The notes below the pieces were generated by a model. It saw only the letters and a program-made list of their open reading frames with translations, was not told the DNA's origin and searched no databases. From positions 25,277 through 89,276 of the forward strand of contig LUCB01000002.1 of assembly GCA_001593865.1 (NCBI GenBank): a stretch of 64,000 nt of DNA, written 5' to 3'. Shown one piece after another: positions 4,845 to 42,668 of this stretch; the stretch's first letter is position 1; every line of letters begins with the position of its first letter. The translations under genes and the position numbers were made by a program. The DNA is from Candidatus Bathyarchaeota archaeon B24. Its GTDB lineage: Archaea; Thermoproteota; CALKCG01; B24.

Positions 4845-6384
4845 CCTCATCCTCCGTCGAACGGCCTACCAACCCCATCCTTTCCCAAGCGACTTTAGCT
4901 ACTACGCTTGTTTTAGCCGGGTAATCCCTCACGTCGACTTCGACTGTGACCGGGAACGGGACGGGGGACGCCATACCCCATATCAAAGCTTCATGGTCTG
5001 CTAAACCGGGGAGATAATCAGCCATCCGCTCGCTACCATACTCGGAGTATTTTATTATGGCCTCCTGGTCGTTACCGGCCATAAGCCTGAACGCGGCTAT
5101 CGTGTTACACTGCGAGATCACGGATTTAGAGACATAAGCAGGTCTCTGGGTAACCAGTATGAAGCCTACGTTGTATCCTCCTGCTTGACTTATGGCCTCT
5201 ATTATCTGCTTATCCACACCCGTCTTCTCCGGGCTTCCGACCTCTATCTTAAGACCCCTCTCAGGTATGAAATACTGAGCCTCCTCTATGACGAATATAA
5301 CCGCGAAGTCCCCGGCTCTCCTATGCTCTACAGCATAATGCATTACGTTCCTTATGATATACTTAGCCGCAAGCTGCTGATCCTCTATGTTCGCGTCGAC
5401 GGAGAAGTCCACTATAACCGCAGGATTCCGGTAGACCGTTTCTATTATGTTTAACGGCTTATGCTCTATCCCGAACAATTGACTCCCACGCTTATCGAGA
5501 ACCCACCTGATCTTCGCGAGCACAGAGTCCCTCCCCCTAGAGAGAAGATAAGGCGAGATCTCGACGCATTTCCTAAGGACGTTTTTAACCGTAAGCTCCA
5601 GCCCCTCCGCCCTTATGGAGTTCAAAGCCTCGCATAAAAGCCTACCATCGCTCCTCCGAGGGTCCAAACCCAGCCTGGAAGCGACAAGCTCAGGAGACAC
5701 AAGCTCCGCCCTAGGCACAAACCTGAAATAAGGAAGCATAACCGCACCATACTTAGTCAACAAGCTATACTCACACCGCCTATCGAAAACTATAAACCTA
5801 GGCTTAGGCTCCTGCTCCAACGACCTAGCCATAAGGTTCAACACAAAAGTGCTCTTCCCTGACCTTGTCATTCCTGCGACGAACATATGTCCCTTTGCTA
5901 TCGCGTTTAGGTCTAAGTAGAAGGGCATGTCTAGTCCCCTATGCCGTCCTATCTTCACCGGGAAGTCTGTTCTATCGATCAAACGTCTACCTGAGAGTTT
6001 CAGGAAGAAGCCTTTCAACTCCTCCTGGTTCGGTTCGTATACCGAGTCCCATGTATTCGGGCTGCATTCGAGCCTCCTCCATTTCCCATCCCAGGAGATG
6101 TAGCCTAAGACCTCCGCCCAGGCCACCAGGTATTCGAGCTTCTTCCCATAGTATGCTTTCTCACCCTTCTTACCGGCTATGGGTCCGAAGCTTCCCACGG
6201 TCATCTCAGGATTATAAGGCGTTATCTTGTGAACCCTCAGCAAGACGGGGTTGAATTCTCCTACAGGGCTTAAGGGGTGGTTGATGAAGTAGTAGCCGTT
6301 TACATAGACCTCCGCGTCCTCCATGACGACGAAGGAGACTCTGTTTTGATTGCAGCCAGATAACACATAGCCTATCTGCCTCAA
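4828..6384 (-). CDS. herA: HerA-like FtsK/HerA-superfamily ATPase
   Basis: Walker A GMTRSGKST. Walker B FVIEEAQYF. VTQRP sensor motif. N-terminal beta-rich (HAS-barrel-like) region. 4-nt overlap with the upstream NurA-like gene. Confidence 0.75.
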   Translation of the reverse strand: MRQIGYVLSGCNQNRVSFVVMEDAEVYVNGYYFINHPLSPVGEFNPVLLRVHKITPYNPEMTVGSFGPIAGKKGEKAYYGKKLEYLVAWAEVLGYISWDGKWRRLECSPNTWDSVYEPNQEELKGFFLKLSGRRLIDRTDFPVKIGRHRGLDMPFYLDLNAIAKGHMFVAGMTRSGKSTFVLNLMARSLEQEPKPRFIVFDRRCEYSLLTKYGAVMLPYFRFVPRAELVSPELVASRLGLDPRRSDGRLLCEALNSIRAEGLELTVKNVLRKCVEISPYLLSRGRDSVLAKIRWVLDKRGSQLFGIEHKPLNIIETVYRNPAVIVDFSVDANIEDQQLAAKYIIRNVMHYAVEHRRAGDFAVIFVIEEAQYFIPERGLKIEVGSPEKTGVDKQIIEAISQAGGYNVGFILVTQRPAYVSKSVISQCNTIAAFRLMAGNDQEAIIKYSEYGSERMADYLPGLADHEALIWGMASPVPFPVTVEVDVRDYPAKTSVVAKVAWERMGLVGRSTEDEVKEVA

Positions 6385-7529
6385 ACGCCCTCACCCTCAA
6401 GACCGTCGAGCCCGCTGTTCAAAACCCAGCTCTCCCCGTACTCTAAGAGAAGCAGGTCTAGGTCCTTGAGCTCCATCTCCCCTCTTTTGACGAGCTCTAA
6501 GGCTTTAGAATAGAGTACGAGTGAATGTACGTTAGACGTCGGACGCGTTATCCTCGAAAGCCTATCTGCTTCATGAATCGGATACGGTATACCGTTTAGA
6601 CCAGCCATGGTCCATACGATCGACATCAGCTCCTCAATCTTGTCCAAGCAGAACAGTGGAATTTCGACCCTAAACGGCATAGACCCTGTCTTGACGTAGC
6701 TGGAGTATATCACCGGTAGAGTGGAGCTGTAGCCTAGGTCCTCGGCGACCGCTTTGTAGGACTGTGTGATCTCGTTCTCGACCCTAAACGGCTCCGAGTA
6801 CTCTCCCTCTCGGAGTATAAAGTTCATCAATATAGAGTCTCTTATCTGAGGGTTCTTGGTATACGACGTGTAGAAGCTCATATGCGTGCGTTTCACAAAC
6901 CCTAGGACCGGCACCTTGAACTTTCTACAGTTCTCTAGAAGCTCAAGCACCGTTATGACCGTGAAGTAGAAGTCCCCTTCATACTGAGGTGAGGTTTTAA
7001 ACCCGGGGTATAACCTCGGGTTGAGGACTATCCCCCCGTCCAGCAGCAGGTAGTCCGGCTTCCACCTTTCGACGGCTTTAGACGCCACGTGGTATTCCAA
7101 GGCCATGTGAAGCAGGCTTTCACGCTTATCAGGGTCGACTTCAGACGTCCATAGATCAGGTGGACCGGTTACGCATAGAGGCTCCTCTACTATGCTCCAG
7201 TTTTCAACCAGAACCGCTACCGCACCGTATAGAGGGATGTATGCGAACTTATACTCTGTCCCGTTTCTACCAGCGTCTACACCCACTATCCTAGACGATG
7301 CCGGTCCATCCTCGTCATACATGGCTTTGTAAACCTTAACCCTGCCTCTGAGGTCGTCTATAAGTCTATGTATCTCCTTCCTATACCTCCTCAGCCTGTC
7401 TAGGAGAAGTTCCGTTCCCTTGTCGATAAGCTCTTGGTACAGCTTGATGTAGGGCATCTCCTTGAGCCATAAGGCTGCCCTCAAATTATCTTGGTCATTG
7501 CTTGTTGAGGGGGAAACGCTTATATCCAT
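6381..7529 (-). CDS. nurA: NurA-like nuclease
   Basis: Acidic motifs spaced as NurA D/E/D catalytic residues (GVDAGR ... HMALEYH ... LLLDGG). Gene order nurA-herA with overlapping stop/start. Confidence 0.6.
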   Translation of the reverse strand: MDISVSPSTSNDQDNLRAALWLKEMPYIKLYQELIDKGTELLLDRLRRYRKEIHRLIDDLRGRVKVYKAMYDEDGPASSRIVGVDAGRNGTEYKFAYIPLYGAVAVLVENWSIVEEPLCVTGPPDLWTSEVDPDKRESLLHMALEYHVASKAVERWKPDYLLLDGGIVLNPRLYPGFKTSPQYEGDFYFTVITVLELLENCRKFKVPVLGFVKRTHMSFYTSYTKNPQIRDSILMNFILREGEYSEPFRVENEITQSYKAVAEDLGYSSTLPVIYSSYVKTGSMPFRVEIPLFCLDKIEELMSIVWTMAGLNGIPYPIHEADRLSRITRPTSNVHSLVLYSKALELVKRGEMELKDLDLLLLEYGESWVLNSGLDGLEGEGV

Positions 7530-16512: not shown

Positions 16513-16599
16513 GCCGGGGTTGCGGAGCGGACAAACGCGCAGGCCTTGAGAGCCTGTGGGCCCTCCGGGCCCTCGTGGGTTCGAATCCCACCCCCGGCG
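16513..16599 (+). tRNA. tRNA-Ser (anticodon TGA), class II with long variable arm
   Basis: Acceptor stem GCCGGGG/CCCCGGC. Anticodon stem CAGGC/GCCTG with loop CTTGAGA (anticodon TGA). Long variable hairpin GGGCCCTCCGGGCCC. T-loop GTGGGTTCGAATCCCAC. Discriminator G. CCA not encoded. Confidence 0.85.
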
Positions 16600-29681: not shown

Positions 29682-31013
29682 GTGTCTCCTATGGAGCTTA
29701 GGCTCCCCTATGACCTCGCGAGACGTCAGGTGTGTGTCGAGATACCCGACGAGAAGGTAGCCGGAGTGGTCAAGCCTGGAAGAGCCAAGACTCTGAACCC
29801 TGAGACCGTCAAGAGGCTTGTGAGAGAGAACCCCTACCTTAGGAGGCTCATAGGAGAGGTCAAGAAGCGTAGGGGAAGACTTTCGATACTCGTAGACGAC
29901 CATACAAGACCTACACCCGTCAAAGATATACTACCCGTTCTTCTAGATATGGCCGGTGACGAAGTCGACGTGAGGATTCTGTACGCGAAGGGGACTCACG
30001 ACATCCCTCCTAGATGGCTTTTAGAGAGAAAACTAGGTAGAGACGTTTTAAACGATACTCGGCTTATCATGCATGACGCCTATAAATTTGAAGACCACAT
30101 CTTCAAAGGCGTTACGAGGTATGGAACGCCCGTATGGATAAATCGAGAAGCGGCAGAAGCGGATGCTATGATAGGCATAGGCTCGATATTTCCATCCGAG
30201 GTCGCCGGGTTCACAGGAGGATGCAAGATAGTCCTACCGGGCATAGCATTTTGGAGCAGTATAAATAAGAATCACATGCTTTTCATATCGCCGTCCGTCG
30301 GGGTCGGAAGACTCGAGGGAAACATCCTGAGAATGGACATAGACGAAGCGGGTTTGATAGCCGGCTTAGACGCCGTGGTAGACTTCGTCATGGGAGTCGA
30401 CGACGGGATTCTAGGAGTCTTCATAGGAAAACCGGTCGAAACCCACAGGAGGGGAGTTAAGCTCTGTGAGAAGCTGTATAAGACCTCCGTAGCCGAGAAG
30501 GCTAAGGTTGTCTTGGTATCACCCGGCGGGACAGAGGATTTGGACCTCGTTCAGGCGTTTAAAGCCGTCTTCACGGCCGACCGTGTCTGCGAGGACGGTG
30601 GGGTGATAGTTCTCGTAGCCGCATGTCCTCTGGGAACCCAGTGGAGTGAGCTGGAGGAGTTTATGGAAACCGTTAGGGTGAAAAAGCTGGATAGAGCCGA
30701 CATCCTCAGGATGGTCGTCGACTCCAGGGTCGAGGCTCTGGCAGGTGGGTTCGTCTATAGGCTTTACCACATCCTCGTGGAGGGTAGGAAGAAACTCTAC
30801 CTGGTCTCGGATAACATATCTTGGAAAACCGCCGAGACGCTGGGCTTCAAACCGTTCAGAGACGTTCAAGAGGCTGTGGACGAGGCTATAGAGGAGACTA
30901 AAGGCAGGGTCTTAGCTATACCTTACGCGGCCTACAACTGGGTCGAGAAGCCTCCAGACGGTTATTTTCTGACAGCCACTACCTCGTCTGTACTCCTTAG
31001 AGCGCAGCCATAG
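29682..31013 (+). CDS. LarA-like (nickel-pincer-nucleotide-dependent racemase/epimerase family, DUF2088) protein
   Basis: ILVDDHTRPTP and YAKGTHD motifs characteristic of the LarA N-domain. 443 aa. Confidence 0.6.
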   Translation: MSPMELRLPYDLARRQVCVEIPDEKVAGVVKPGRAKTLNPETVKRLVRENPYLRRLIGEVKKRRGRLSILVDDHTRPTPVKDILPVLLDMAGDEVDVRILYAKGTHDIPPRWLLERKLGRDVLNDTRLIMHDAYKFEDHIFKGVTRYGTPVWINREAAEADAMIGIGSIFPSEVAGFTGGCKIVLPGIAFWSSINKNHMLFISPSVGVGRLEGNILRMDIDEAGLIAGLDAVVDFVMGVDDGILGVFIGKPVETHRRGVKLCEKLYKTSVAEKAKVVLVSPGGTEDLDLVQAFKAVFTADRVCEDGGVIVLVAACPLGTQWSELEEFMETVRVKKLDRADILRMVVDSRVEALAGGFVYRLYHILVEGRKKLYLVSDNISWKTAETLGFKPFRDVQEAVDEAIEETKGRVLAIPYAAYNWVEKPPDGYFLTATTSSVLLRAQP

Positions 31014-32007: not shown

Positions 32008-33234
32008 GTGCCTAAACTTGCCATCAGAGGTGGTAAACCGGTCAGAGATCGACCATATCCGAAGTGGCCGATATTCGACGAGAGGGAACTCGAGGCTTTG
32101 AAAGAGGTTCTCTACAGCGGATTATGGGGGATCGGAGGCTCTAAGAAGCCCGAGTTTGAGAAGAAGTTCGCAGAGTACCAGCATGCCAAATATGGGGTTG
32201 CCGTTACCAACGGGACTGCGGCTTTGATGATCGCTCTTAAGGCGTGTGGCGTAGGGTGTGGAGATGAGGTCATAATACCGCCCTACACGTTCATGGCCAC
32301 CGCTACCGCCGTGTTGGACGTAAACGCTATACCCGTTTTCGTAGACATAGAGCCTGACACGTATAACATAGACCCTAAGAAGGTTGAAGAGGCTATAACC
32401 GATAAGACGAAAGCCATCATACCGGTTCACATAGGCGGTAGACCAGCGGATATGGATGCGCTAACCCGCATAGCCGACAAGTACGGGCTTAGCATAATCG
32501 AAGACGCCTGCCAAGCATGGGGTTCCGAGTGGCGCGGCCAGAGGGTGGGTGCCATAGGAGCACTCGGAGCTTTCAGCTTCCAGTCTAGCAAAAACATAAC
32601 GAGCGGTGAGGGAGGCATCATAGTCACGAACGACGAGGAACTCTATCAGAAGGCTTGGAGCCTCCACAATTGCGGACGCAAACTGAAGGGTGAATGGTAT
32701 ATGCACTATCTTCCAGGCGGAAACTTCAGGATGACTGAGTTTCAAGCTGCCATACTCCTAGTTCAGCTTTCTCGATATGATGAATATCTTAAACGTAGGA
32801 TGGAGAACGCCGCTTATCTAGACGCAAAACTCTCCAAGATAGACGGATTGAGACCTATGAGGAGGGACGAGAGGGTTACGAGGTGTTCTTATCACCTGTA
32901 TATAATGAGATACGACCCTGAGGCTTTCGGAGGGCTACCGAAGAATAAGCTTGCTGAAGCTATGCGGGCGGAGGGAATACCGCTTAGTCCAGGCTACTCC
33001 CGCCCGCTCTATAGAGAACCCTACCTGAGCTACTACGCTAAGTGTCCACTCTCATGCCCGTATTATGGTAAGAAAGTGGACTACTCTAAACTGAAACTCC
33101 CGGTGACCGAGAGGGCATGCTACGTTGAAGGAGTGTGGCTACCGCAGTATGTCCTGCTAGGCTCTAAGGATGATATGGACGACATAGTCGCGGCCTTCGA
33201 AAAGATCAAAGATAACATAAATGAACTTACGTAG
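32008..33234 (+). CDS. DegT/DnrJ/EryC1/StrS-family PLP-dependent (sugar) aminotransferase
   Basis: Family-typical N-terminus and lysine region (FSFQSSKNITSGEGG). 408 aa. Confidence 0.8.
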   Translation: MPKLAIRGGKPVRDRPYPKWPIFDERELEALKEVLYSGLWGIGGSKKPEFEKKFAEYQHAKYGVAVTNGTAALMIALKACGVGCGDEVIIPPYTFMATATAVLDVNAIPVFVDIEPDTYNIDPKKVEEAITDKTKAIIPVHIGGRPADMDALTRIADKYGLSIIEDACQAWGSEWRGQRVGAIGALGAFSFQSSKNITSGEGGIIVTNDEELYQKAWSLHNCGRKLKGEWYMHYLPGGNFRMTEFQAAILLVQLSRYDEYLKRRMENAAYLDAKLSKIDGLRPMRRDERVTRCSYHLYIMRYDPEAFGGLPKNKLAEAMRAEGIPLSPGYSRPLYREPYLSYYAKCPLSCPYYGKKVDYSKLKLPVTERACYVEGVWLPQYVLLGSKDDMDDIVAAFEKIKDNINELT

Positions 33235-33268
33235 TAATCCTACCAGGTAAATGTTTAAGTGAGACAAC

Positions 33269-34033
33269 GTGTCCGGTTTGGATGAATTAAGTAAAAGGCT
33301 AGAAGCCTTAAGAGAGGCAAGTCAACGGGTTTGTAGACGTCTCTTAAAAACCAGGTCTGATATCGTAGCTATCATGGTCGTCGGTTCGGTGGCTAGGGGA
33401 AACATACATGAAAACTCAGACGTCGACCTGTGTGTTCTAGTTAAGTACGGGGAGCATCCTGAGAGGGAACGTATTCGGGAGTTAGACTGCGATGTGGAGG
33501 TGGTCTACACCCCGCTCCGCTTATGGAGGGAGAGGCTATACCGTGGTATAGGAAGCATGTGGGAAATCGATGTATCAAACGTCGTGGATTCTCTCGTCTT
33601 GTACGACCCCTACGGGGTCGTCAGGGAGATTAAGCGGATGTTTAAAGTGTATCCCGAGGAAAAGAGGAGGATGAATATTTTAGAGATTTTTCATAGAATG
33701 GGCTGGTACGAGGAGGCCGTGAGGTATCATTATCTTAAGAAGAACTATGATGTTCAATCTGTTTTCAGCAAGATGTACGTTATGGAGGCGCTTAAAATAC
33801 TGTTTCCGTTGAATCGGGTATACTTAAGGGGGGAGAAGCATATGTTTGAGCAGCTGAAGGAGCTGAGGGAGATACCACCAGGTCTTCTAGAGAGGTGTCT
33901 AAGCCTACTGTGGTTTAAGAGCCGGGGTGTAAAACATGAGGAGGCGACCTGGATTCTCGAAACCGTTTCAGATATTTGGAGGCTCATAAAGGATAAGATT
34001 CGCTCGTCGGAACCAGGTCTCCTCAGGCAGTGA
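33269..34033 (+). CDS. Minimal nucleotidyltransferase (Pol-beta superfamily) domain protein with helical C-domain
   Basis: GSVARGNIHENSDVDLCVLV (GS...D.D NTase motif). Confidence 0.6.
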   Translation: MSGLDELSKRLEALREASQRVCRRLLKTRSDIVAIMVVGSVARGNIHENSDVDLCVLVKYGEHPERERIRELDCDVEVVYTPLRLWRERLYRGIGSMWEIDVSNVVDSLVLYDPYGVVREIKRMFKVYPEEKRRMNILEIFHRMGWYEEAVRYHYLKKNYDVQSVFSKMYVMEALKILFPLNRVYLRGEKHMFEQLKELREIPPGLLERCLSLLWFKSRGVKHEEATWILETVSDIWRLIKDKIRSSEPGLLRQ

Positions 34034-35298
34034 TGAAACCAACCTTTAAATCCTCAACGCGTGGATGCATATATGTGGAATCTGTAGACTTGAAGTTTTT
34101 CGAAGGCGTCGCAGATATGCATGTCGTGGATACGCATGAACACACTTACCCTTATGAAGTTCTAACCAGTAAGGGGTTATCCATAATAGATATTCTCGAG
34201 GGGTCCTACGTCTTCTGGGTGACCGAGTCTCCCGAGGATAGAAGCGACTACAGGAGTCTTGTAGAACGTCTTAGGAGAATATCAGGAAGCGCCTTCTATA
34301 AAGCGTGTAGCATCGCGGTTAAGGAGCTCTACGGGGTCGACATAGACCCTCCGACCGTGGAGGCTTTAGAAGAGGCTTCTAGGCGGGTACGCGAGGCGTA
34401 TAGGGACCCACGTTGGATCAGAGAGGTTTTTAAGGAGAAAAGCCTGATCGACACGGCTCTCCTCGACCCATACTGGGATGTCTGGGGAGGAAGCTTCGAC
34501 CCCGACCTTTTCAAACCCGTCTTCAGGATAAACATGTTTCTCTTCGGCTACAGTAGAGAGGCTAGGGATCATAACGGAAACACACCCTACCTACTCGAAA
34601 AACCGTTAAACCTAGAAGTCCATAGTTTCGACGACTACCTCGAGCTGGTAGATAGGGCCTTGAAGGAGGCTAAGAGAAGGGGATATGTCGCCCTCAAGTC
34701 GGCTTTGGCGTACGATAGACCCATACGTTTCGAAGAGGTAGACGAAGACGAGGCCAGGAGGGTGTTCGAGAAGAAGGGGGTAGATGTCACGTCTAGGGAT
34801 GTCAGAGCGTTCGGGGACTTTATGCTTCACTATATCCTCGGTAAAGCCGAGGATATGGGTTTTCCCGTTCAGTTTCACACAGGACTAGCGCTCATAGAGG
34901 GGTCGAACCCGATGAACCTAGTGAACCTCCTTCGTAAATACGTGAACGTGAAATTCATACTCTTCCACGGAGGATACCCGTGGATAAGAGAAACCCTAGC
35001 TTTAGCCCTTAGCTTCAGAAACGTCTACCTAGACCTTTGCTGGCTCCCGATAATATCGCCGTCGGCCTGCAGAATCATGTTGAGAGAAGCTATAGAGCTA
35101 GGGTTTTCTGGAAGGCTTATGTGGGGCGGGGATTGCTGGGTAGCGGAGGCGACCTACGGCGCCTTAAAGATGTTCAAATCCGTCCTATCAGACGTTTTAA
35201 AGGATATGGTCGAGAAAGACCATCTAACCTTTGACGAAGCGTTAGACATAGCCTCCAAGATACTAAAATGGAACGCAGTCGAGCTCTTTAACCTCTGA
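34030..35298 (+). CDS. Amidohydrolase-2 (TIM-barrel metal-dependent hydrolase) family protein
   Basis: N-terminal HVVDTHEHTY (HxH metal site). Late FHGGYPW. 4-nt overlap with the upstream NTase gene. Confidence 0.55.
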   Translation: MMKPTFKSSTRGCIYVESVDLKFFEGVADMHVVDTHEHTYPYEVLTSKGLSIIDILEGSYVFWVTESPEDRSDYRSLVERLRRISGSAFYKACSIAVKELYGVDIDPPTVEALEEASRRVREAYRDPRWIREVFKEKSLIDTALLDPYWDVWGGSFDPDLFKPVFRINMFLFGYSREARDHNGNTPYLLEKPLNLEVHSFDDYLELVDRALKEAKRRGYVALKSALAYDRPIRFEEVDEDEARRVFEKKGVDVTSRDVRAFGDFMLHYILGKAEDMGFPVQFHTGLALIEGSNPMNLVNLLRKYVNVKFILFHGGYPWIRETLALALSFRNVYLDLCWLPIISPSACRIMLREAIELGFSGRLMWGGDCWVAEATYGALKMFKSVLSDVLKDMVEKDHLTFDEALDIASKILKWNAVELFNL

Positions 35299-38402: not shown

Positions 38403-39410
38403 ATGACAGTTATGGAAACTATCATAGAGAGGTCTAAAAAGAGACCTGGTAGAATAGTCTTACCCGAAGGCACTGACGAGAGGATTTTGAAAGCAGCCAG
38501 CGTAGCGGCGGAGACGGGTATAGCTAAGCCCGTGCTTCTGGGAAGAGAGGAAGACGTCAGAGACTTAGCGTCTAAACTGAACGTGAGCCTCGACGGTGTG
38601 GAGATCTTGAACCCTGAAACTTCTCCTAAACTCGGTGAATATGTCAAGCGTTATTTAGCCATAAGAAAGGGTAAACGTGTTACCGAAGCCATAGCCAGAA
38701 GGATCCTCAGAAAACCTCTCTTTTACGGTGCTATGATGGTCGGTGTAGGAGACGCGGACGGTATGGTAGCCGGAGCCGTGTCTCTGACGGCTAACGTCAT
38801 AAGAGCTGGACTGCTTTTGATAGGACTTGAGAAAGACATCTCGGTGCCTTCAAGCTTCTTTATAATGGAAACAAACAACAGGAACGTCGGAGAAGACGGT
38901 GTCCTCATATTCGCCGACGCCGCTGTGAACCCAGACCCGACTCCTGAACAGTTAGCCGACATAGCGGTGGCCTCTGCCAGGAGCGCACGAAGGCTTCTGG
39001 GATGGGAGCCTAGGGTAGCTCTACTATCCTTCTCGACTAAGGGCAGCGCGGCTCACCCGATGGTCGACAAAGTGGCCGAAGCCGTCAAGATAGCTAAATC
39101 CAAAGCACCTGACTTGGCGATAGATGGAGAGATGCAGGCCGACGCGGCTTTGATACCTGAGGTCGCGCGAAGGAAGATCAAGACAGGTCTTGGACCAGTC
39201 GCCGGGAGGGCTAACGTGTTGATATTTCCAGACCTCGATGCCGGCAATATCGCGTACAAGCTTGTCCAACACGTCTGCGGAGCTAAGGCATACGGTCCGA
39301 TACTCCAAGGGTTCTCAAAGCCTATCAGCGACCTCTCGAGGGGTGCTAAGGCCGACGAGATAGTAGGTGTCATAGCCGTGGTGAACCTCTTATCCATGAC
39401 GGAACACTAG
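38403..39410 (+). CDS. pta: Phosphate acetyltransferase (Pta/PtaB, phosphotransacylase)
   Basis: [17 protein letters not shown]-terminus. [10 protein letters not shown]. Confidence 0.85.
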
Positions 39411-39438: not shown

Positions 39439-40650
39439 TTGAAGGTGTTGGTGATAAACTGCGGAAGTTCTACGATAAAGTATAAGGTCTTCCAGGTTCA
39501 AGACGGTTCTACGCTTAAGGAGCTTGCATCGGGGCTTTTAGAGAGGATAGGGTCGGATAAATCCACGTTGACCCACCGTCGAGACGGAGAAACTTACAAG
39601 TTCGAACTCGAAGCTAAAGACCACAGAGAGGGCTTAGAGTCTATACTGAAGATCTTAACGAGCAAGGAGCACGGTGTTATAGAGGATCCTTCCGAAGTCT
39701 TCGCCGTAGGACATAGGGTCGTCCACGGTGGAGATTCCGTGTTTCAGCCGACCGTCATCACGGAAGACCTCCTTAACGTCATAAGACGGTGGAGCGATAT
39801 GGCACCACTGCATAATCCTGCGAACCTAGCGGGGATCGAAGCGGCGATCTCCCTACTTCCCGGAGCTCATCAGGTAGCCGTTTTCGATACTGCGTTTCAC
39901 CAGACGATGCCCGCAGAGGCTTATCTCTACGCGATACCGTACGAGTACTACGAGCGTTACAGGATACGACGATACGGTTTCCACGGCACCTCGCATAGGT
40001 ATGTGGCTTATAAAGCCGCCGAGGTTTTGAATAGAGACATCTCAGAACTTAAAATGGTCACATGCCACTTAGGGGCTGGATGCAGCATCACGGCCGTCTG
40101 CGGGGGTAAATCCATCGATACGAGTATGGGATTCACACCGCTCGAGGGACTTGTGATGGCTACCAGGTCTGGGGATATAGACCCATCTCTCATATTCTTC
40201 CTAGTTAGAAAAGAGGGATTAAACGTTGAGGAGGTGGAGAATCTACTGAACCGCAAGAGCGGGCTTCTAGGGCTTTCAGGGGTAAGCGGGGATGTACGGG
40301 ATATATGGAGGGAAGTCGAGAAGGGAAACCAAAGAGCGGAGCTGGCCATGAGGGTGTTCGCGTATAGGGTGAAGAAATACATAGGCGCCTACGCCGCCGC
40401 GATGGGAGGGCTCGACGCGATAGTGTTCACGGCGGGCATAGGTGAGAACGACTGGAGGACCAGGGAGCTCATATGCGAGGGACTTGAATATCTAGGCGTC
40501 AGACTCGATAAAAGGCTTAACCGTATGACATCTAAGGAGCCCAGGATCATAAGTAGTGACGACTCGAAGGTCAAGGTTCTAGTGATCCCGACAGACGAGG
40601 AGCTGGCTATAGCCTTAGAGACCTTAAACCTCCTGCTTAGAAAGAGATAA
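39439..40650 (+). CDS. ackA: Acetate kinase
   Basis: MKVLVINCGSSTIKYKVF. VVHGG. FHGTSH. 403 aa. Confidence 0.9.
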   Translation: MKVLVINCGSSTIKYKVFQVQDGSTLKELASGLLERIGSDKSTLTHRRDGETYKFELEAKDHREGLESILKILTSKEHGVIEDPSEVFAVGHRVVHGGDSVFQPTVITEDLLNVIRRWSDMAPLHNPANLAGIEAAISLLPGAHQVAVFDTAFHQTMPAEAYLYAIPYEYYERYRIRRYGFHGTSHRYVAYKAAEVLNRDISELKMVTCHLGAGCSITAVCGGKSIDTSMGFTPLEGLVMATRSGDIDPSLIFFLVRKEGLNVEEVENLLNRKSGLLGLSGVSGDVRDIWREVEKGNQRAELAMRVFAYRVKKYIGAYAAAMGGLDAIVFTAGIGENDWRTRELICEGLEYLGVRLDKRLNRMTSKEPRIISSDDSKVKVLVIPTDEELAIALETLNLLLRKR

Positions 40651-40687
40651 ATTGTATGCTTTATGTCTAAATAGATGGTGAGCCGAA

Positions 40688-41950
40688 GTGAAGCTATGCA
40701 TTTTCGAAGATAGGAAGTACGATAACCTGTACCCGCTGACCCTTACGAGAACGGTTTTCGAGCTTAGATGCGGTGCGACGTCTCTTATGGATAAAATCGA
40801 ACGAAGCGCCCCGAACGTCGACGTCGTGTACTTCATGCGCGACTATCTCGTAGAGATTTTCAAGGAGAGATACGGGGAACGGTGCGTGAACGACTTGAAC
40901 ACCCTGAAAGATGATGTCCTTCTCGTCAACGGTCGGTTACTCACTAAAACAGGCGACCTAAGTCTAGAGGGAGACGAGGAAGTAGCCGTTAAAGATGGAG
41001 ACGTCGTCTATGTAAGGGCTAAGAAAGGGACCATGGAGAAGCTTCTCGCAGATAGCCTGGAGAAAACGCTTGAGAACCTTAAGGAGGAACTCAGCGTTAA
41101 AGAAGTAGATGCGACGCTGATAGAGTATCCGTGGGACCTAGTCAATAACAACTCCAAGGCTATAGTCGAGGATTTCAAGCATATAGGTAGCGGCATACAT
41201 GGTGAGCTGCATCCACAAGCTGTCGTAGTAGGGGATAAAGAGAACCTGTACATCGCTAAGACTGCTAGGGTGCATCCATACACGGTTATAGATGTCGAGA
41301 ACGGGCCGGTCATCATCGACGAAGGGAGTATAGTGTACCCGTTTAGCAGGATAGAGGGGCCTACTTACGTGGGTAAGAACTGCTGGATCCTTAGAGGCAA
41401 CATCAGGGAAGGTGTAAGCCTTGGGCCTGTATGTAGGGTAGGCGGTGAGGTCGAGGAGTCTATAATACACGGGTACTCTAATAAGTACCATACCGGTTTC
41501 CTCGGCCACTCGTACGTGGGAGAGTGGGTTAACATAGGTGCCCTAACGACGAATAGTGATATTAAGAATGACTATACGTCTGTTAAAGTCTATATCAAAG
41601 GGGAATTCGTGGATACTAAGACCCAGAAAGTCGGCTCGTTCATCGGAGACCACACCAAGTTCAGCATAGGGTGCCTACTGAACACGGGTAGCCACATCGG
41701 CGTCGCATGTAACCTACTGGCCTCTGGTGAGCCGCTTCCGAAGTATATTCCAAGCTTCTGTTGGTACTTCAGAGGGAGATTTAGCCGGGGCTGGGGCTTC
41801 AGGAGGACCATAAAGTCTGAGAGCGCCATGATGGCTAGGAGAAAAGTCGAGATGACCGAGGCTAGGGTTAAGCTTCTGAGACGCATATACGATGAGACTA
41901 AGGAGGAGAGGGAAACCCTAATTAGAATGAGTAGGAGGAGAGTTAGGTAG
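40688..41950 (+). CDS. Hexapeptide-repeat (left-handed beta-helix) protein with a degenerate sugar-nucleotidyltransferase-like N-domain (GlmU/eIF2B-gamma-epsilon-like architecture)
   Basis: N-terminus KLCIFEDRKYDNLYPLTLTR resembles the NTP-transferase LYPxT region but lacks the GxGxR loop. C-terminal half has about 8 hexapeptide repeats (VIDVENGPVIIDEGSIVYP...). Confidence 0.5.
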   Translation: MKLCIFEDRKYDNLYPLTLTRTVFELRCGATSLMDKIERSAPNVDVVYFMRDYLVEIFKERYGERCVNDLNTLKDDVLLVNGRLLTKTGDLSLEGDEEVAVKDGDVVYVRAKKGTMEKLLADSLEKTLENLKEELSVKEVDATLIEYPWDLVNNNSKAIVEDFKHIGSGIHGELHPQAVVVGDKENLYIAKTARVHPYTVIDVENGPVIIDEGSIVYPFSRIEGPTYVGKNCWILRGNIREGVSLGPVCRVGGEVEESIIHGYSNKYHTGFLGHSYVGEWVNIGALTTNSDIKNDYTSVKVYIKGEFVDTKTQKVGSFIGDHTKFSIGCLLNTGSHIGVACNLLASGEPLPKYIPSFCWYFRGRFSRGWGFRRTIKSESAMMARRKVEMTEARVKLLRRIYDETKEERETLIRMSRRRVR

Positions 41951-41963
41951 TTTAAGGGGAGGG

Positions 41964-42215
41964 TTGGAGATGTCGGAGAGCATCGAGGCTCGGGCTAAGA
42001 GGCTTATAGCCGAGCAGTTTGGAGTAGACCCGGAGGAGCTTAAGCCTGAAACCCATCTGGTCAAAGACCTCAAGATGGAGTCTCTGGATAAGATAGAGCT
42101 CATAGCAGCCTTTGAAGAGGAGTTTGACATAGAGATTCCGGAAGAAGAAGCCGAGAGAAACGTCACGGTGGGGCAAGTAATCGAATACGTCAAAGCCAAG
42201 CTAGGCGTCAAATAA
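41964..42215 (+). CDS. acpP: Acyl carrier protein, bacterial AcpP-type
   Basis: RAKRLIAEQFGV...DLKMESLDKIELIAAFEEEFDIEIPEEEAE. Ppant-Ser motif (D/E)SLD and helix-II acidic patch align closely with canonical bacterial ACP. Probable start at the third residue, Met (41970). Confidence 0.85.
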   Translation: MEMSESIEARAKRLIAEQFGVDPEELKPETHLVKDLKMESLDKIELIAAFEEEFDIEIPEEEAERNVTVGQVIEYVKAKLGVK

Positions 42216-42254: not shown

Positions 42255-42668
42255 TTGGAAAATAGGGGATTCTTATTGGGTTTAGATACTGGTATCAAGG
42301 GATTGGGCGTAGACCTGATGGAGATAGAGAGGCTTAAACGTAGCGTCGAGAGGAGGGGTAGACGTCTTTTAGAGAAGATATTCACCGAGGAGGAGATAAG
42401 ATACTGCTTCTCTATGGGAGAGCCTTATCAACATCTCGCCGCGAGGTTCTGTCTTAAGGAAGCCGTCTTGAAGGCTTTTGGACTCGGATTAGGTAGAGGT
42501 GTAACCCTGAGAGATATAGAGGTTAAGCTCAACGAGCTGGGTAAACCCTACGTGGAGATACATGGTCGATTAAAGGAGAAAGCCGAAAAATCCGGGGTCT
42601 CGCGTATAATCGTAAGTATGAGTCACAGCGGAGAATATGCGATAGCGGTAGCCATACTCACCGGGTAG
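42255..42668 (+). CDS. acpS: Holo-[acyl-carrier-protein] synthase (AcpS-type 4'-phosphopantetheinyl transferase)
   Basis: GLGVDLMEIERL...ARFCLKEAVLKAFG...LGKPYV matches AcpS G(I/V)D..EI / AKEA..KA / LGKP motifs. The TTG start is uncertain. Confidence 0.8.
   Translation: MENRGFLLGLDTGIKGLGVDLMEIERLKRSVERRGRRLLEKIFTEEEIRYCFSMGEPYQHLAARFCLKEAVLKAFGLGLGRGVTLRDIEVKLNELGKPYVEIHGRLKEKAEKSGVSRIIVSMSHSGEYAIAVAILTG

Follow-up and report, generated by a model that had tools for sequence, protein, structure and literature searches.

The enzyme closest in fold to the protein described here, ST0452 of Sulfolobus tokodaii (PDB 2ggo, 5z09, 5z0a), is an archaeal GlmU-type protein that is both a sugar-1-phosphate nucleotidylyltransferase and an acetyltransferase for GlcN-1-P and GalN-1-P. 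Escherichia coli GlmU (b3730) takes acetyl from acetyl-CoA and uses no carrier protein. LpxD and LpxA are hexapeptide acyltransferases that act on a glucosamine derivative with an acyl carrier protein (ACP) thioester as partner. LpxD has an N-terminal alpha/beta domain and its ACP is recognised by a C-terminal helical region. Both ACP and the holo-ACP synthase AcpS are rare in archaea. The gene investigated here lies directly upstream of an ACP gene in a 64,000-nt stretch of DNA (the window) from Candidatus Bathyarchaeota archaeon B24.

The product of this gene is 100% identical to a protein of Ca. Bathyarchaeota archaeon B24. It aligns with TIGR03991 over its whole length (E 1e-110; 370.8 bits with a cut-off of 225.3), residues 1-401 corresponding to model positions 1-394, and matches PF13562 (NTP_transf_4) over residues 3-166 (97 bits, cut-off 27), in both cases far above chance level. 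It is a member of a named but uncharacterised family: TIGR03991 ('alt_bact_glmU') is described as bifunctional GlmU but is graded 'hypothetical equivalog' in its own model, and our literature searches found no experimental work on the TIGR03991/PF13562 family or on the gene cluster. The family runs to thousands of proteins (a homologue search at E<=1e-30 gave 1,510 clusters at 50% identity). A set of motifs found in the target, (F)ED...P..T.R, NGR, NKxHxGFxGH, WVNxGA, SDLKNxY, GDH, PSF, and RR, is conserved in both family alignments (A1, A2) and across the three clades. Canonical GlmU models score the target at 17-27 bits (cut-offs 366-725); TIGR01173 (GlmU) reaches 22.1 bits with a cut-off of 366.85, and TIGR03992 (archaeal GlmU-type) reaches 98.9 bits with a cut-off of 292.1, through the hexapeptide part only. 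An earlier, sequence-only reading of the gene had allowed for a characterised family overlooked by eye. The family is indeed a firmly named one, but it is just a hypothetical equivalog and the nucleotidyltransferase residues are missing.

An AlphaFold model of the target (pLDDT 89.2, pTM 0.91) has ST0452 as its best fold match in the PDB, with a TM-score of 0.62-0.66 for a full-length superposition of both domains. As judged from the alignments, the N-terminal domain has, throughout the family, neither the GxGxR loop of nucleotidyltransferases nor their catalytic Lys and Mg-binding Asp. When aligned to a canonical nucleotidyltransferase with hhalign, DRKYDN (residues 8-13) falls opposite AGLGTR, V23 opposite the catalytic Lys, and NGR (81-83) opposite NGD, with R83 at the position of the Mg-binding Asp; this alignment is weak (E 0.033), but its register is consistent with the ST0452 superposition. 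The replacement of GxGxR by EDRKYDN (residues 7-13) is thus in the register that the sequence-only reading had proposed. The LYPxT/xDK pattern that it had described stands in part: LYPLTLTR follows EDRKYDN, but the 'xDK' portion is not conserved in the family. No match was obtained between the target and a ManC-like nucleotidyltransferase by hhalign (E 0.39), and a sequence search of the PDB and Pfam with the N-terminal domain alone (E<=10) returned only PF13562 and noise.

The residues that replace the nucleotidyltransferase signature are themselves conserved. E7 and D8 are conserved in at least 90% of the family, and the FED motif, P16, R21, G29, N68, N81-G-R83, W149, N155, and D162 are conserved family-wide. 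Since these residues are conserved and the loss is shared by the whole family, it does not represent decay, and we rejected the possibility of a pseudogene or a decayed domain. The domain had previously been called inactivated, which is apt for the nucleotidyltransferase signature but not if it implies a one-off event.

The C-terminal half is a hexapeptide domain, as had been noticed, with left-handed beta-helix strands at residues 179-366 of the model. It is homologous to the beta-helix domain of ST0452 (E 9e-14 by single sequence, 1e-31 by profile) and to residues 301-423 of E. coli GlmU (hhalign probability 97%, E 5e-11). H268 corresponds to H363 of E. coli GlmU and H308 of ST0452, and is invariant in both alignments and all three clades. 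N282, Y296, and K314 correspond by hhalign to the acceptor-binding residues N377, Y387, and K392 of E. coli GlmU, and R250 is close to GlmU R333 in the alignment; these residues are likewise conserved in every clade. With the catalytic and acceptor-binding residues of GlmU in place, the domain is probably an active acetyltransferase rather than a scaffold. The sequence-only reading had pointed to an LpxA/LpxD-type active-site His as the residue to inspect among homologues; a His is invariant there, but it is of the GlmU type. Its suggestion of a GlmU derivative agrees with a fold closest to ST0452 and a lost nucleotidyltransferase signature.

Coordinates of the target gene, its parts and its neighbours are listed in the table. 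The ackA stop codon (TAA, 40648-40650) is 37 nt 5' of the target start, and the ACP gene begins 19 nt beyond the target stop codon. For the ACP, public gene calls place the start at ATG 41970 (81 aa) and the ORF list at TTG 41964; GGGGAGGG is located 5' of the ATG. This ACP retains the conserved Ser of its ESL motif. The start of acpS is uncertain, with an ORF from 42255 and public calls at 42276 or 42303. In the PDB, the pta product is closest to phosphotransacetylases of known structure (E 1.8e-81 to 1.8e-69); by these matches and by its family score it is an ordinary phosphotransacetylase, and it looks CoA-type. The wider module, with pta-ackA upstream, acpS downstream, and, among relatives, genes for NagB, ADP-forming acetyl-CoA synthetase (ACD), or a Claisen synthase, had not featured in the sequence-only reading.

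Table. Features of the target gene and its operon (positions in the window)
Feature	Position	Strand	Evidence
pta, phosphate acetyltransferase, first of five-gene cluster	38403..39410	+	PF01515 391 bits; TIGR00651 357.9 (cut-off 311.2)
ackA, acetate kinase	39439..40650	+	PF00871 512.6 bits; TIGR00016 520.2 bits
GGTGA, Shine-Dalgarno-like motif	40677..40681	+	6 nt 5' of the target's GTG; read from sequence, putative function
Target gene, TIGR03991/PF13562 protein, 420 aa	40688..41950	+	single intact ORF, GTG start; TIGR03991 370.8 bits over residues 1-401
N-terminal nucleotidyltransferase-like domain, aa 1-166, without catalytic signature	40688..41185	+	PF13562 over aa 3-166
Codons E7-D8-R9-K10-Y11-D12-N13, replacing GxGxR loop	40706..40726	+	sequence; LYPLTLTR next
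Left-handed beta-helix (hexapeptide) acetyltransferase domain, aa 173-346	41204..41725	+	homology to ST0452 beta-helix and E. coli GlmU 301-423
Codon of His268, counterpart of GlmU/ST0452 catalytic base	41489..41491	+	alignments to ST0452 H308, E. coli GlmU H363
C-terminal extension, aa 347-420, PSFxW strand region and three helices; candidate ACP-docking surface	41726..41950	+	model
Dedicated ACP, 81 aa from ATG 41970	41970..42215	+	PF00550 49.5 bits; TIGR00517 82.1 (cut-off 70.45)
acpS, holo-ACP synthase	42276..42668	+	PF01648 84.1 bits; TIGR00516 100.5 (cut-off 59.8)

We compared the gene context of the target and its homologues (here X), counting genes within 5 kb unless stated otherwise. 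The ACP-linked loci form one clade in the tree (clade A; 43 loci), spread over more than 10 bacterial lineages and Thermoproteota archaea (38 bacterial and 5 archaeal loci). An ACP gene was found at 35 of these 43 loci compared to none of the 32 loci of sister clade C (Fisher p = 5e-14), so we rejected chance adjacency; the stand-alone clades have no ACP nearby. In clade A the ACP gene is usually 0-30 nt downstream of X on the same strand, and the partner ACPs share the signature DLGAES(I/V)QS(I/V)EL. One protein, P0127, is a natural X-ACP fusion (PP-binding domain, 38.5 bits) and is present on two contigs. AcpS is encoded beside the module at all five archaeal loci, compared to 1/38 bacterial loci (p = 6e-6). 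The order Pta-AckA-X-ACP-AcpS is kept in six archaeal contexts, and at one archaeal locus (L004) the stop of ackA and the start of X share 4 nt. The archaeal cassettes, including AcpS, are nested among bacterial sequences in the tree, suggesting that the cassette was acquired as a block by Bathyarchaeia and other Thermoproteota. Context and fusion together strongly favour the ACP as a partner of X, and the ACP link that had been suspected from the target's position is real, being conserved across phyla and sealed in one gene fusion.

A Pfam census of 112 further neighbours yielded no additional recurrent partner. Neither a ketosynthase nor any other chain-building family was among the recurrent neighbours in this census, and we therefore rejected a fatty-acid or polyketide role for the ACP.

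The C-terminal extension offers a possible site of contact with the ACP. Its three helices span residues 371-384, 391-403, and 405-417 of the AlphaFold model, and R384, R385, and R408 are conserved family-wide. The mean net charge of the extension is +5.9 in the ACP-linked clade compared to +0.4 and +2.2 in the other clades, and the net charge of the ACP is -10. On this basis, and by analogy with LpxD, we regard the extension as a candidate ACP-docking surface.

Our main reading, to which we give about an even chance, is that the target is an active N-acetyltransferase of the GlmU/ST0452 type for glucosamine phosphate and that it works with its private ACP. The N-terminal domain would have lost sugar-nucleotide synthesis and been re-tooled as a conserved pocket for a ligand or a partner. 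X would use the ACP encoded directly downstream, and not free CoA alone; the co-encoded AcpS would make this ACP functional in an otherwise ACP-poor archaeon, with acetyl carried on the 4'-phosphopantetheine thiol of holo-ACP. In an active site at the trimer interface, His268 may serve as general base or acid while acetyl passes between the thioester and the sugar amine, and the basic helical extension may dock the acidic ACP. Pta and AckA would link the carrier-bound acetyl with acetyl-phosphate, acetyl-CoA, acetate, and ATP. Homology and context suggest acetyl as the acyl group, glucosamine phosphate as the probable partner, and use of the ACP. For the direction of transfer, we lean slightly towards transfer from acetyl-ACP to the amine, a biosynthetic or salvage synthesis of GlcNAc-phosphate fed by acetate through AckA and Pta, because every step would then be downhill and the homologues act likewise.

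Several observations do not sit easily with this reading. A private carrier brings no obvious advantage to a downhill acetylation, and the operon Pta has the CoA-type appearance described above. Clade A differs from the stand-alone clades at few residues: in a scan for clade-A-specific positions just five turned up, and these discriminate weakly. Clade-A genes are almost without glmM or glmS, with no such neighbour except GlmM-like ORFs at two loci (L022, after the ACP; L015, upstream on the opposite strand). Furthermore, a citramalate/isopropylmalate-synthase-like enzyme, which consumes acetyl-thioester and is a misfit with biosynthetic acetylation, is encoded at 17/43 clade-A loci as the second most frequent neighbour.

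The likeliest of the rival readings is transfer in the opposite direction, which we consider possible but somewhat doubtful. In such a pathway the N-acetyl group of GlcNAc-6-P (or GlcNAc-1-P) would be moved to the thiol of the private holo-ACP, replacing the hydrolytic step of NagA. GlcN-6-P would pass to NagB, and acetyl-ACP would be drained by Pta-AckA or ACD, with formation of ATP, or by the Claisen synthase for assimilation. The uphill amide-to-thioester transfer could run because this carrier pool would be shielded from the cell's acetyl-CoA/CoA ratio. The existence of a dedicated carrier would thereby be accounted for. The commonest partner in clade A is the catabolic deaminase NagB (TIGR00502 above cut-off; 25/43 loci), and no NagA homologue was found within 10 kb of any of 92 loci with the E. 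coli seed, a count that covers these surroundings and not the rest of the genomes. NagB accompanies the ACP clade, whereas glmS accompanies the stand-alone clades and directly adjoins X at three of their loci (L064, L080, L077). Pta (14/43), AckA (10/43), ADP-forming ACD (5/43), and the citramalate/isopropylmalate-synthase-like enzyme typically consume acetyl thioesters. Other catabolic amino-sugar genes occur nearby now and then (PIG-L at L090, NamZ at L034 and L044), most host lineages are anaerobic heterotrophs, and the nesting of whole archaeal cassettes, AcpS included, among bacterial sequences also fits. However, we know of no precedent in catabolism for acetyl transfer from an amide to a thioester. 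By our own estimate the step is uphill by ~15-25 kJ/mol, and a net gain of ATP would need very low GlcN-6-P and acetate. The homologues GlmU and ST0452 run in the acetylating direction, the operon with PIG-L already holds a hydrolytic deacetylase, and the cluster is also carried by a MAG of the anammox Brocadiaceae (L021), a family known as autotrophs.

We think it unlikely that the target is an ACP-dependent N-acyltransferase for some other acyl group or acceptor. In an LpxD-like variant, the Claisen synthase might assemble an acyl chain on the ACP, and X would pass this chain to an amino sugar, or to its nucleotide-linked form, bound in the N-terminal domain. The alpha/beta N-terminal domain, beta-helix, and C-terminal helices do resemble the layout of LpxD, X, ACP and synthase follow one another in this order at 17 loci, and there are weak matches to LpxA and LpxD at the hexapeptide level. 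F271 and D291 of the target occupy the positions of Y311 and N331 of ST0452, residues that reportedly matter for its acetyltransferase activity on the evidence of mutagenesis. However, the LpxA/LpxD models score only 16-20 bits (cut-offs 207-243; TIGR01852 17.8 against 231, TIGR01853 17.1 against 242.5), which speaks against an LpxA/LpxD-type identity, and chain-building genes are not recurrent nearby. In the archaeal operons Pta-AckA is the only candidate for charging the carrier, and this favours acetyl.

An active enzyme that uses acetyl-CoA as GlmU does, beside an ACP that serves some other purpose, has in our view very little probability. The nearest characterised homologues do use acetyl-CoA, and the stand-alone clades without an ACP differ from clade A at few residues. 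Against this, adjacency without mechanistic meaning is hard to reconcile with the 35/43 and 0/32 counts, with stop and start codons that overlap or nearly so, with a dedicated ACP signature and a natural fusion, or with AcpS being found at every archaeal locus.

Equally small is the probability that we attach to a non-catalytic regulator or scaffold in the manner of eIF2B-gamma/epsilon or GMPPA, governing partner enzymes in response to a sugar nucleotide or sugar phosphate that it senses. The loss of nucleotidyltransferase residues from a still conserved pocket would suit such a role, as would GMPPA/GMPPB and VTC1-KJC2 complexes among the structural matches of the model. A close kinship with eIF2B is not supported, eIF2B-epsilon being a marginal match in a profile search (E 0.004, hexapeptide only). 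The binding or scaffold role that the sequence-only reading had allowed for is opposed by the invariant GlmU-type site (H268, N282, Y296, K314), and pairing or fusion with a phosphopantetheine carrier, together with AcpS, argues for thioester chemistry.

Least probable of all is the annotated function, a bifunctional GlmU (UDP-GlcNAc diphosphorylase and GlcN-1-P acetyltransferase) with an unusual active-site sequence: the TIGR03991 description, the naming of homologues as bifunctional GlmU by JGI annotation, the two-domain architecture and fold shared with ST0452, and glmS beside three stand-alone relatives are outweighed by the family-wide replacement of the Gly-rich loop, Lys, and Mg-binding Asp positions, by an N-terminal domain of ~165 aa that matches no nucleotidyltransferase model by sequence at E<=10, by the TIGR01173 and TIGR03992 scores, and by a separate monofunctional GlcNAc-1-P uridylyltransferase reported in Bacteroidetes (PMC4358021).

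The gene context is the new result of this study, and it points to an undescribed carrier-protein-dependent step in amino-sugar and acetate metabolism. If our main reading is right, clade A would provide the first case of a GlmU-type acetyltransferase that partners a carrier protein. Members of the family routinely carry the annotation 'GlmU' or 'sugar nucleotidyl transferase'; since the family is without the nucleotidyl-transfer residues, such annotations, and the metabolic reconstructions derived from them, are probably partly wrong. The module also gives a concrete rationale, other than fatty-acid synthesis, for the sporadic ACP and AcpS genes of Bathyarchaeia, Brockarchaeota, and other Thermoproteota. 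Bathyarchaeial Pta-AckA is usually taken to indicate acetogenesis or the use of acetate (e.g. PMC10321748), and its presence in an operon with X and the ACP may alter that reading. If the acetyl group is instead recovered from GlcNAc-phosphate, the module would be a non-hydrolytic, acetyl-conserving alternative to NagA and a new way to conserve the energy or carbon of acetyl from chitin- and peptidoglycan-derived sugars, which rank with the most abundant sediment substrates.

Compared to known systems, the locus shares parts with several. In relatives of the target, X takes the nagB-adjacent place often held by nagA, but there is no homology between the target and NagA, which belongs to the metal-dependent amidohydrolases. 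LpxD and LpxA resemble the target as hexapeptide enzymes for glucosamine derivatives with a probable ACP thioester partner; the similarity is marginal and confined to the hexapeptide level, and the acyl group of the target is probably acetyl where theirs is 3-hydroxyacyl. To our knowledge, archaea do not make lipid A. GMPPA/KONJAC and eIF2B-gamma/epsilon share with the target a two-domain layout in which nucleotidyltransferase catalysis has been lost and the pocket retained. We know of no acyltransferase chemistry in their hexapeptide domains, whereas the target retains its catalytic His and is paired with a carrier protein. E. coli GlmU has the same acetyltransferase site residues (H363, N377, Y387, K392), and its glmUS operon is paralleled by the stand-alone family members that adjoin glmS. 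In contrast to GlmU, the target is without uridylyltransferase motifs, and its helix is one hexapeptide coil shorter, leaving GlmU residues 342-353 (including E349 and K351) without a counterpart. ST0452 is the closest of these systems in fold, as the best solved two-domain match, and its hexapeptide domain is homologous to that of the target. ST0452 is a working nucleotidyltransferase with a UTP-bound structure, whereas the target has other residues at the Gly-rich loop, Lys, and metal-binding Asp, and sequence alignment between the two is confined to the hexapeptide part. Finally, ST0452 lacks both a 70-aa basic helical C-terminal extension and an ACP partner, and the target has both.

The target gene is a single, intact ORF encoding 420 aa, with a GTG start codon and a GGTGA motif 6 nt upstream of it. 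Its product is 100% identical to a protein in the MAG of Ca. Bathyarchaeota archaeon B24, the source of the window. It stands third in a compact plus-strand cluster, flanked on one side by a divergent ribonucleotide reductase gene and on the other by a convergent Nep1 gene that acpS overlaps by 11 nt. The gene order recurs in two further public assemblies. Mechanically assigned ORF starts for ACP (41964) and acpS (42255) probably lie too far upstream: the likeliest ACP start codon is ATG 41970, 3' of GGGGAGGG, and public gene calls place the acpS start at 42276 or 42303. Upstream on the plus strand (32008-35298 and 29682-31013) are a LarA-like gene and three consecutive genes, whose products are a DegT-type sugar aminotransferase, a small protein of the NTP_transf_2 type and a protein of the Amidohydro_2 family. 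A LarA-like gene also occurs near the module in an archaeal relative (locus L090); a link to sugar modification is possible. The sole Rfam match across the 64 kb window is one tRNA gene (16513-16599).

Genes of the target cluster, with window coordinates and profile scores
Gene	Position	Strand	Score
pta	38403-39410	+	above curated cut-off
ackA	39439-40650	+	above curated cut-off
target	40688-41950	+	TIGR03991, 370.8 bits
ACP	41970-42215	+	above curated cut-off
acpS	about 42276-42668	+	above curated cut-off

By sequence comparison, the target is a bona fide member of the TIGR03991/PF13562 family. It matches TIGR03991 ('alt_bact_glmU', a hypothetical equivalog; cut-off 225.3 bits) from end to end, and residues 3-166 match PF13562 (NTP_transf_4). 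It scores far below the cut-offs of the GlmU, archaeal GlmU and LpxA/LpxD equivalogs, and the nucleotidyltransferase features tested were not found in it. More than 5,800 family proteins were detected at E<=1e-5 among 8,000 candidates examined, with 1,510 clusters at 50% identity and E<=1e-30. A literature search found no publications on the family or the cluster, and the annotation of this very large family is probably misleading.

Modelling and alignment show the fold of the target and the residues it has lost and retained. The AlphaFold model, built on 46 homologues (pLDDT 89.2, pTM 0.91), comprises an alpha/beta N-domain that ends near residue 166, a left-handed beta-helix spanning roughly residues 173-346, and another strand region followed by three C-terminal helices. 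Compared with solved structures, among which no family member was found, the model is closest across both domains to ST0452, the archaeal GlmU-type enzyme of Sulfolobus tokodaii (TM 0.62-0.66), followed by GMPPA/GMPPB, VTC1-KJC2 and bacterial GlmU.

The sequence-only reading, which had seen an inactivated nucleotidyltransferase-like N-domain, was right about the N-terminal motif: EDRKYDN occupies residues 7-13 and LYPLTLTR follows. Profile alignment with a canonical nucleotidyltransferase encoded at one of the loci (E 0.033, weak alone) pairs DRKYDN with AGLGTR, V23 with the catalytic Lys, and N81-G-R83 with N-G-D, which holds the metal-binding Asp; the structural match implies the same register. 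No sequence relatives of the N-domain were detectable outside PF13562. The FED motif, P16, R21, G29, N68, NGR, W149, N155 and D162 are conserved in all clades, ruling out decay of the domain. We infer that the old active-site pocket has been kept with new chemistry, an acidic pair replacing the phosphate-binding loop and an Arg the metal ligand. The pocket probably binds a ligand or partner, and the protein is very unlikely to carry out canonical nucleotidyl transfer.

Acetyltransferase domains homologous to the hexapeptide domain occur in ST0452 (E 9e-14 with a single sequence, 1e-31 with a profile) and in E. coli GlmU (hhalign, 97% probability, E 5e-11). H268 aligns with the catalytic base (ST0452 H308, GlmU H363), N282, Y296 and K314 align with GlmU N377, Y387 and K392, and R250 occupies the position of GlmU R333. 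All five are invariant in the family. Such conservation leaves the earlier suggestion of an eIF2B-like scaffold unsupported. Among the differences, GlmU coil 342-353 has no counterpart in the target, ST0452 Y311 and N331 are replaced by F271 and D291, and K266, H274, W280, K293, N294, D321 and H322 are invariant in the family as well. The domain looks like an active acyltransferase that works on a phosphorylated amino sugar, possibly one whose specificity has changed.

Gene neighbourhoods reveal that a dedicated carrier is a conserved partner of the enzyme, and that the gene is associated with enzymes of the GlcN-6-P node and with those of acetyl-thioester and acetyl-phosphate metabolism. Eighty loci came from a scan in which each GTDB species was represented by a single genome, with more added by exact-protein look-ups, and all were searched with small HMMs made from the window genes and their neighbours. 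The family members of these loci fall into three groups in a neighbour-joining tree. Clade A (43 non-redundant loci) spans Poribacteria, Elusimicrobia, Latescibacterota, Omnitrophota, Aerophobetes, Ratteibacteria and many Planctomycetota, including Brocadiaceae, as well as archaea (Bathyarchaeia, Thermoproteales, Brockarchaeota). At distances of up to 5 kb from the gene, ACP is found in 35/43 clade A loci, NagB in 25 (all examples tested exceed the TIGR00502 cut-off), an IPMS/citramalate-synthase-like enzyme in 17, Pta in 14, AckA in 10, AcpS in 6 and ADP-forming acetyl-CoA synthetase in 5. None of these neighbours occurs in the 32 loci of clade C (Planctomycetaceae, Gemmataceae, Isosphaeraceae; Fisher's exact test against clade A, p = 5e-14 for ACP and 1e-8 for NagB), while clade B (KSB1, Bacteroidota and others) has NagB in 4/9 loci and ACP in 0/9. 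Among members lacking ACP, glmS directly adjoins the gene in three loci (L064:4646-6508, L080:914-2770, L077:9257-11083), resembling the E. coli glmUS operon; in L077, NagB-like ORFs lie on the opposite side from glmS. The loci searched yielded no NagA homologue, and only three of them have GlmM-like genes.

Several individual loci add detail. One Latescibacterota MAG, CSMAG_1544, carries two paralogues, one of clade A (L012; NagB-Pta-X-ACP, X being the family member) and one of clade B (L083; NagB-X...Pta), which suggests functional divergence inside one cell. On three archaeal contigs with homologue P0005 (L001-L003), a decayed ackA survives between pta and the homologue only as short fragments and a 60-aa ORF (about 2530-3030 in L001). 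Since pta, the homologue, ACP, AcpS and NagB are intact there, AckA seems dispensable for the module, with Pta retained. The synthase-like enzyme is an uncharacterised HMGL-like protein of about 465 aa encoded directly 3' of X-ACP (L013:11681-13075, L027:11677-13065 and 15 other clade A loci, in Planctomycetota and Poribacteria); distantly related to isopropylmalate, citramalate and homocitrate synthases, it scores far below their cut-offs and retains RDGxQ and HxH motifs. In L090, pta and ackA are separated by a PIG-L family N-deacetylase gene (5988-6665), and NagB is encoded divergently upstream; in a Brockarchaeota relative, the PIG-L position is taken by a gene for GCHY-1 (GTP cyclohydrolase I type 2; L091:5378-5779). 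In two Phycisphaerae/Sedimentisphaerales loci, a NamZ (exo-beta-N-acetylmuramidase) gene directly upstream of the family member (L034:8508-9947(-), L044:8544-10145(-)) connects it with the catabolism of peptidoglycan sugars.

The clade A ACP gene nearly always follows directly downstream on the strand of its partner, and in some loci the stop codon of one gene overlaps the start codon of the next. Four further features tie ACP to the enzyme. The partner ACPs share a signature of their own, DLGAES(I/V)QS(I/V)EL. Homologue P0127 (520 aa; two contigs, two samples, one lineage) is a natural fusion of the enzyme to a PP-binding domain (PF00550, 38.5 bits); its gene (L093:693-2255) is flanked by genes for a GFO/IDH/MocA oxidoreductase, DUF6807 and two 3-keto-disaccharide hydrolases. 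AcpS lies beside the module in 5/5 archaeal versus 1/38 bacterial clade A loci (p = 6e-6), as expected if the carrier is indispensable and, in line with established knowledge, ACP and AcpS are missing from most archaea. The module apparently moved into archaea as a block. Lastly, the mean net charge of the C-terminal extension is +5.9 for clade A, +0.4 for clade B and +2.2 for clade C; the net charge of the ACP is -10. The C-terminal region of LpxD is an ACP-docking surface, and by analogy the basic extension suggests a candidate docking surface here.

We see an even chance that the enzyme transfers acetyl between two sites, the phosphopantetheine thiol of its ACP and the amine of a glucosamine phosphate. 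Pta together with AckA, or elsewhere ACD, would link carrier-bound acetyl to acetyl-phosphate, acetyl-CoA, acetate and ATP. Within this model we slightly favour acetylation, from acetate through acetyl-P and acetyl-ACP to GlcNAc-P, with NagB possibly an ammonium-dependent GlcN-6-P synthase. All steps would be downhill and conventional, in agreement with the glmS-linked relatives and with the cluster in an anammox-family MAG, although the private carrier, the synthase-like neighbour and the missing glmM/glmS are left unexplained. Somewhat less probable is acetyl salvage (GlcNAc-P + HS-ACP -> GlcN-P + acetyl-ACP), under which each recurrent partner would drain one or other product, and which would account for both the NagB-versus-GlmS dichotomy and the requirement that the carrier pool be kept apart from acetyl-CoA. 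However, salvage needs an uphill amide-to-thioester transfer, to our knowledge without precedent, costing +15-25 kJ/mol by our own rough estimate; overall it would be feasible with a Claisen-synthase sink but marginal with ATP formation.

The ACP-coupled module is well supported statistically and directly testable. The target is predicted to function most like the acetyltransferase half of GlmU/ST0452, with an LpxD-type dependence on a carrier protein added.
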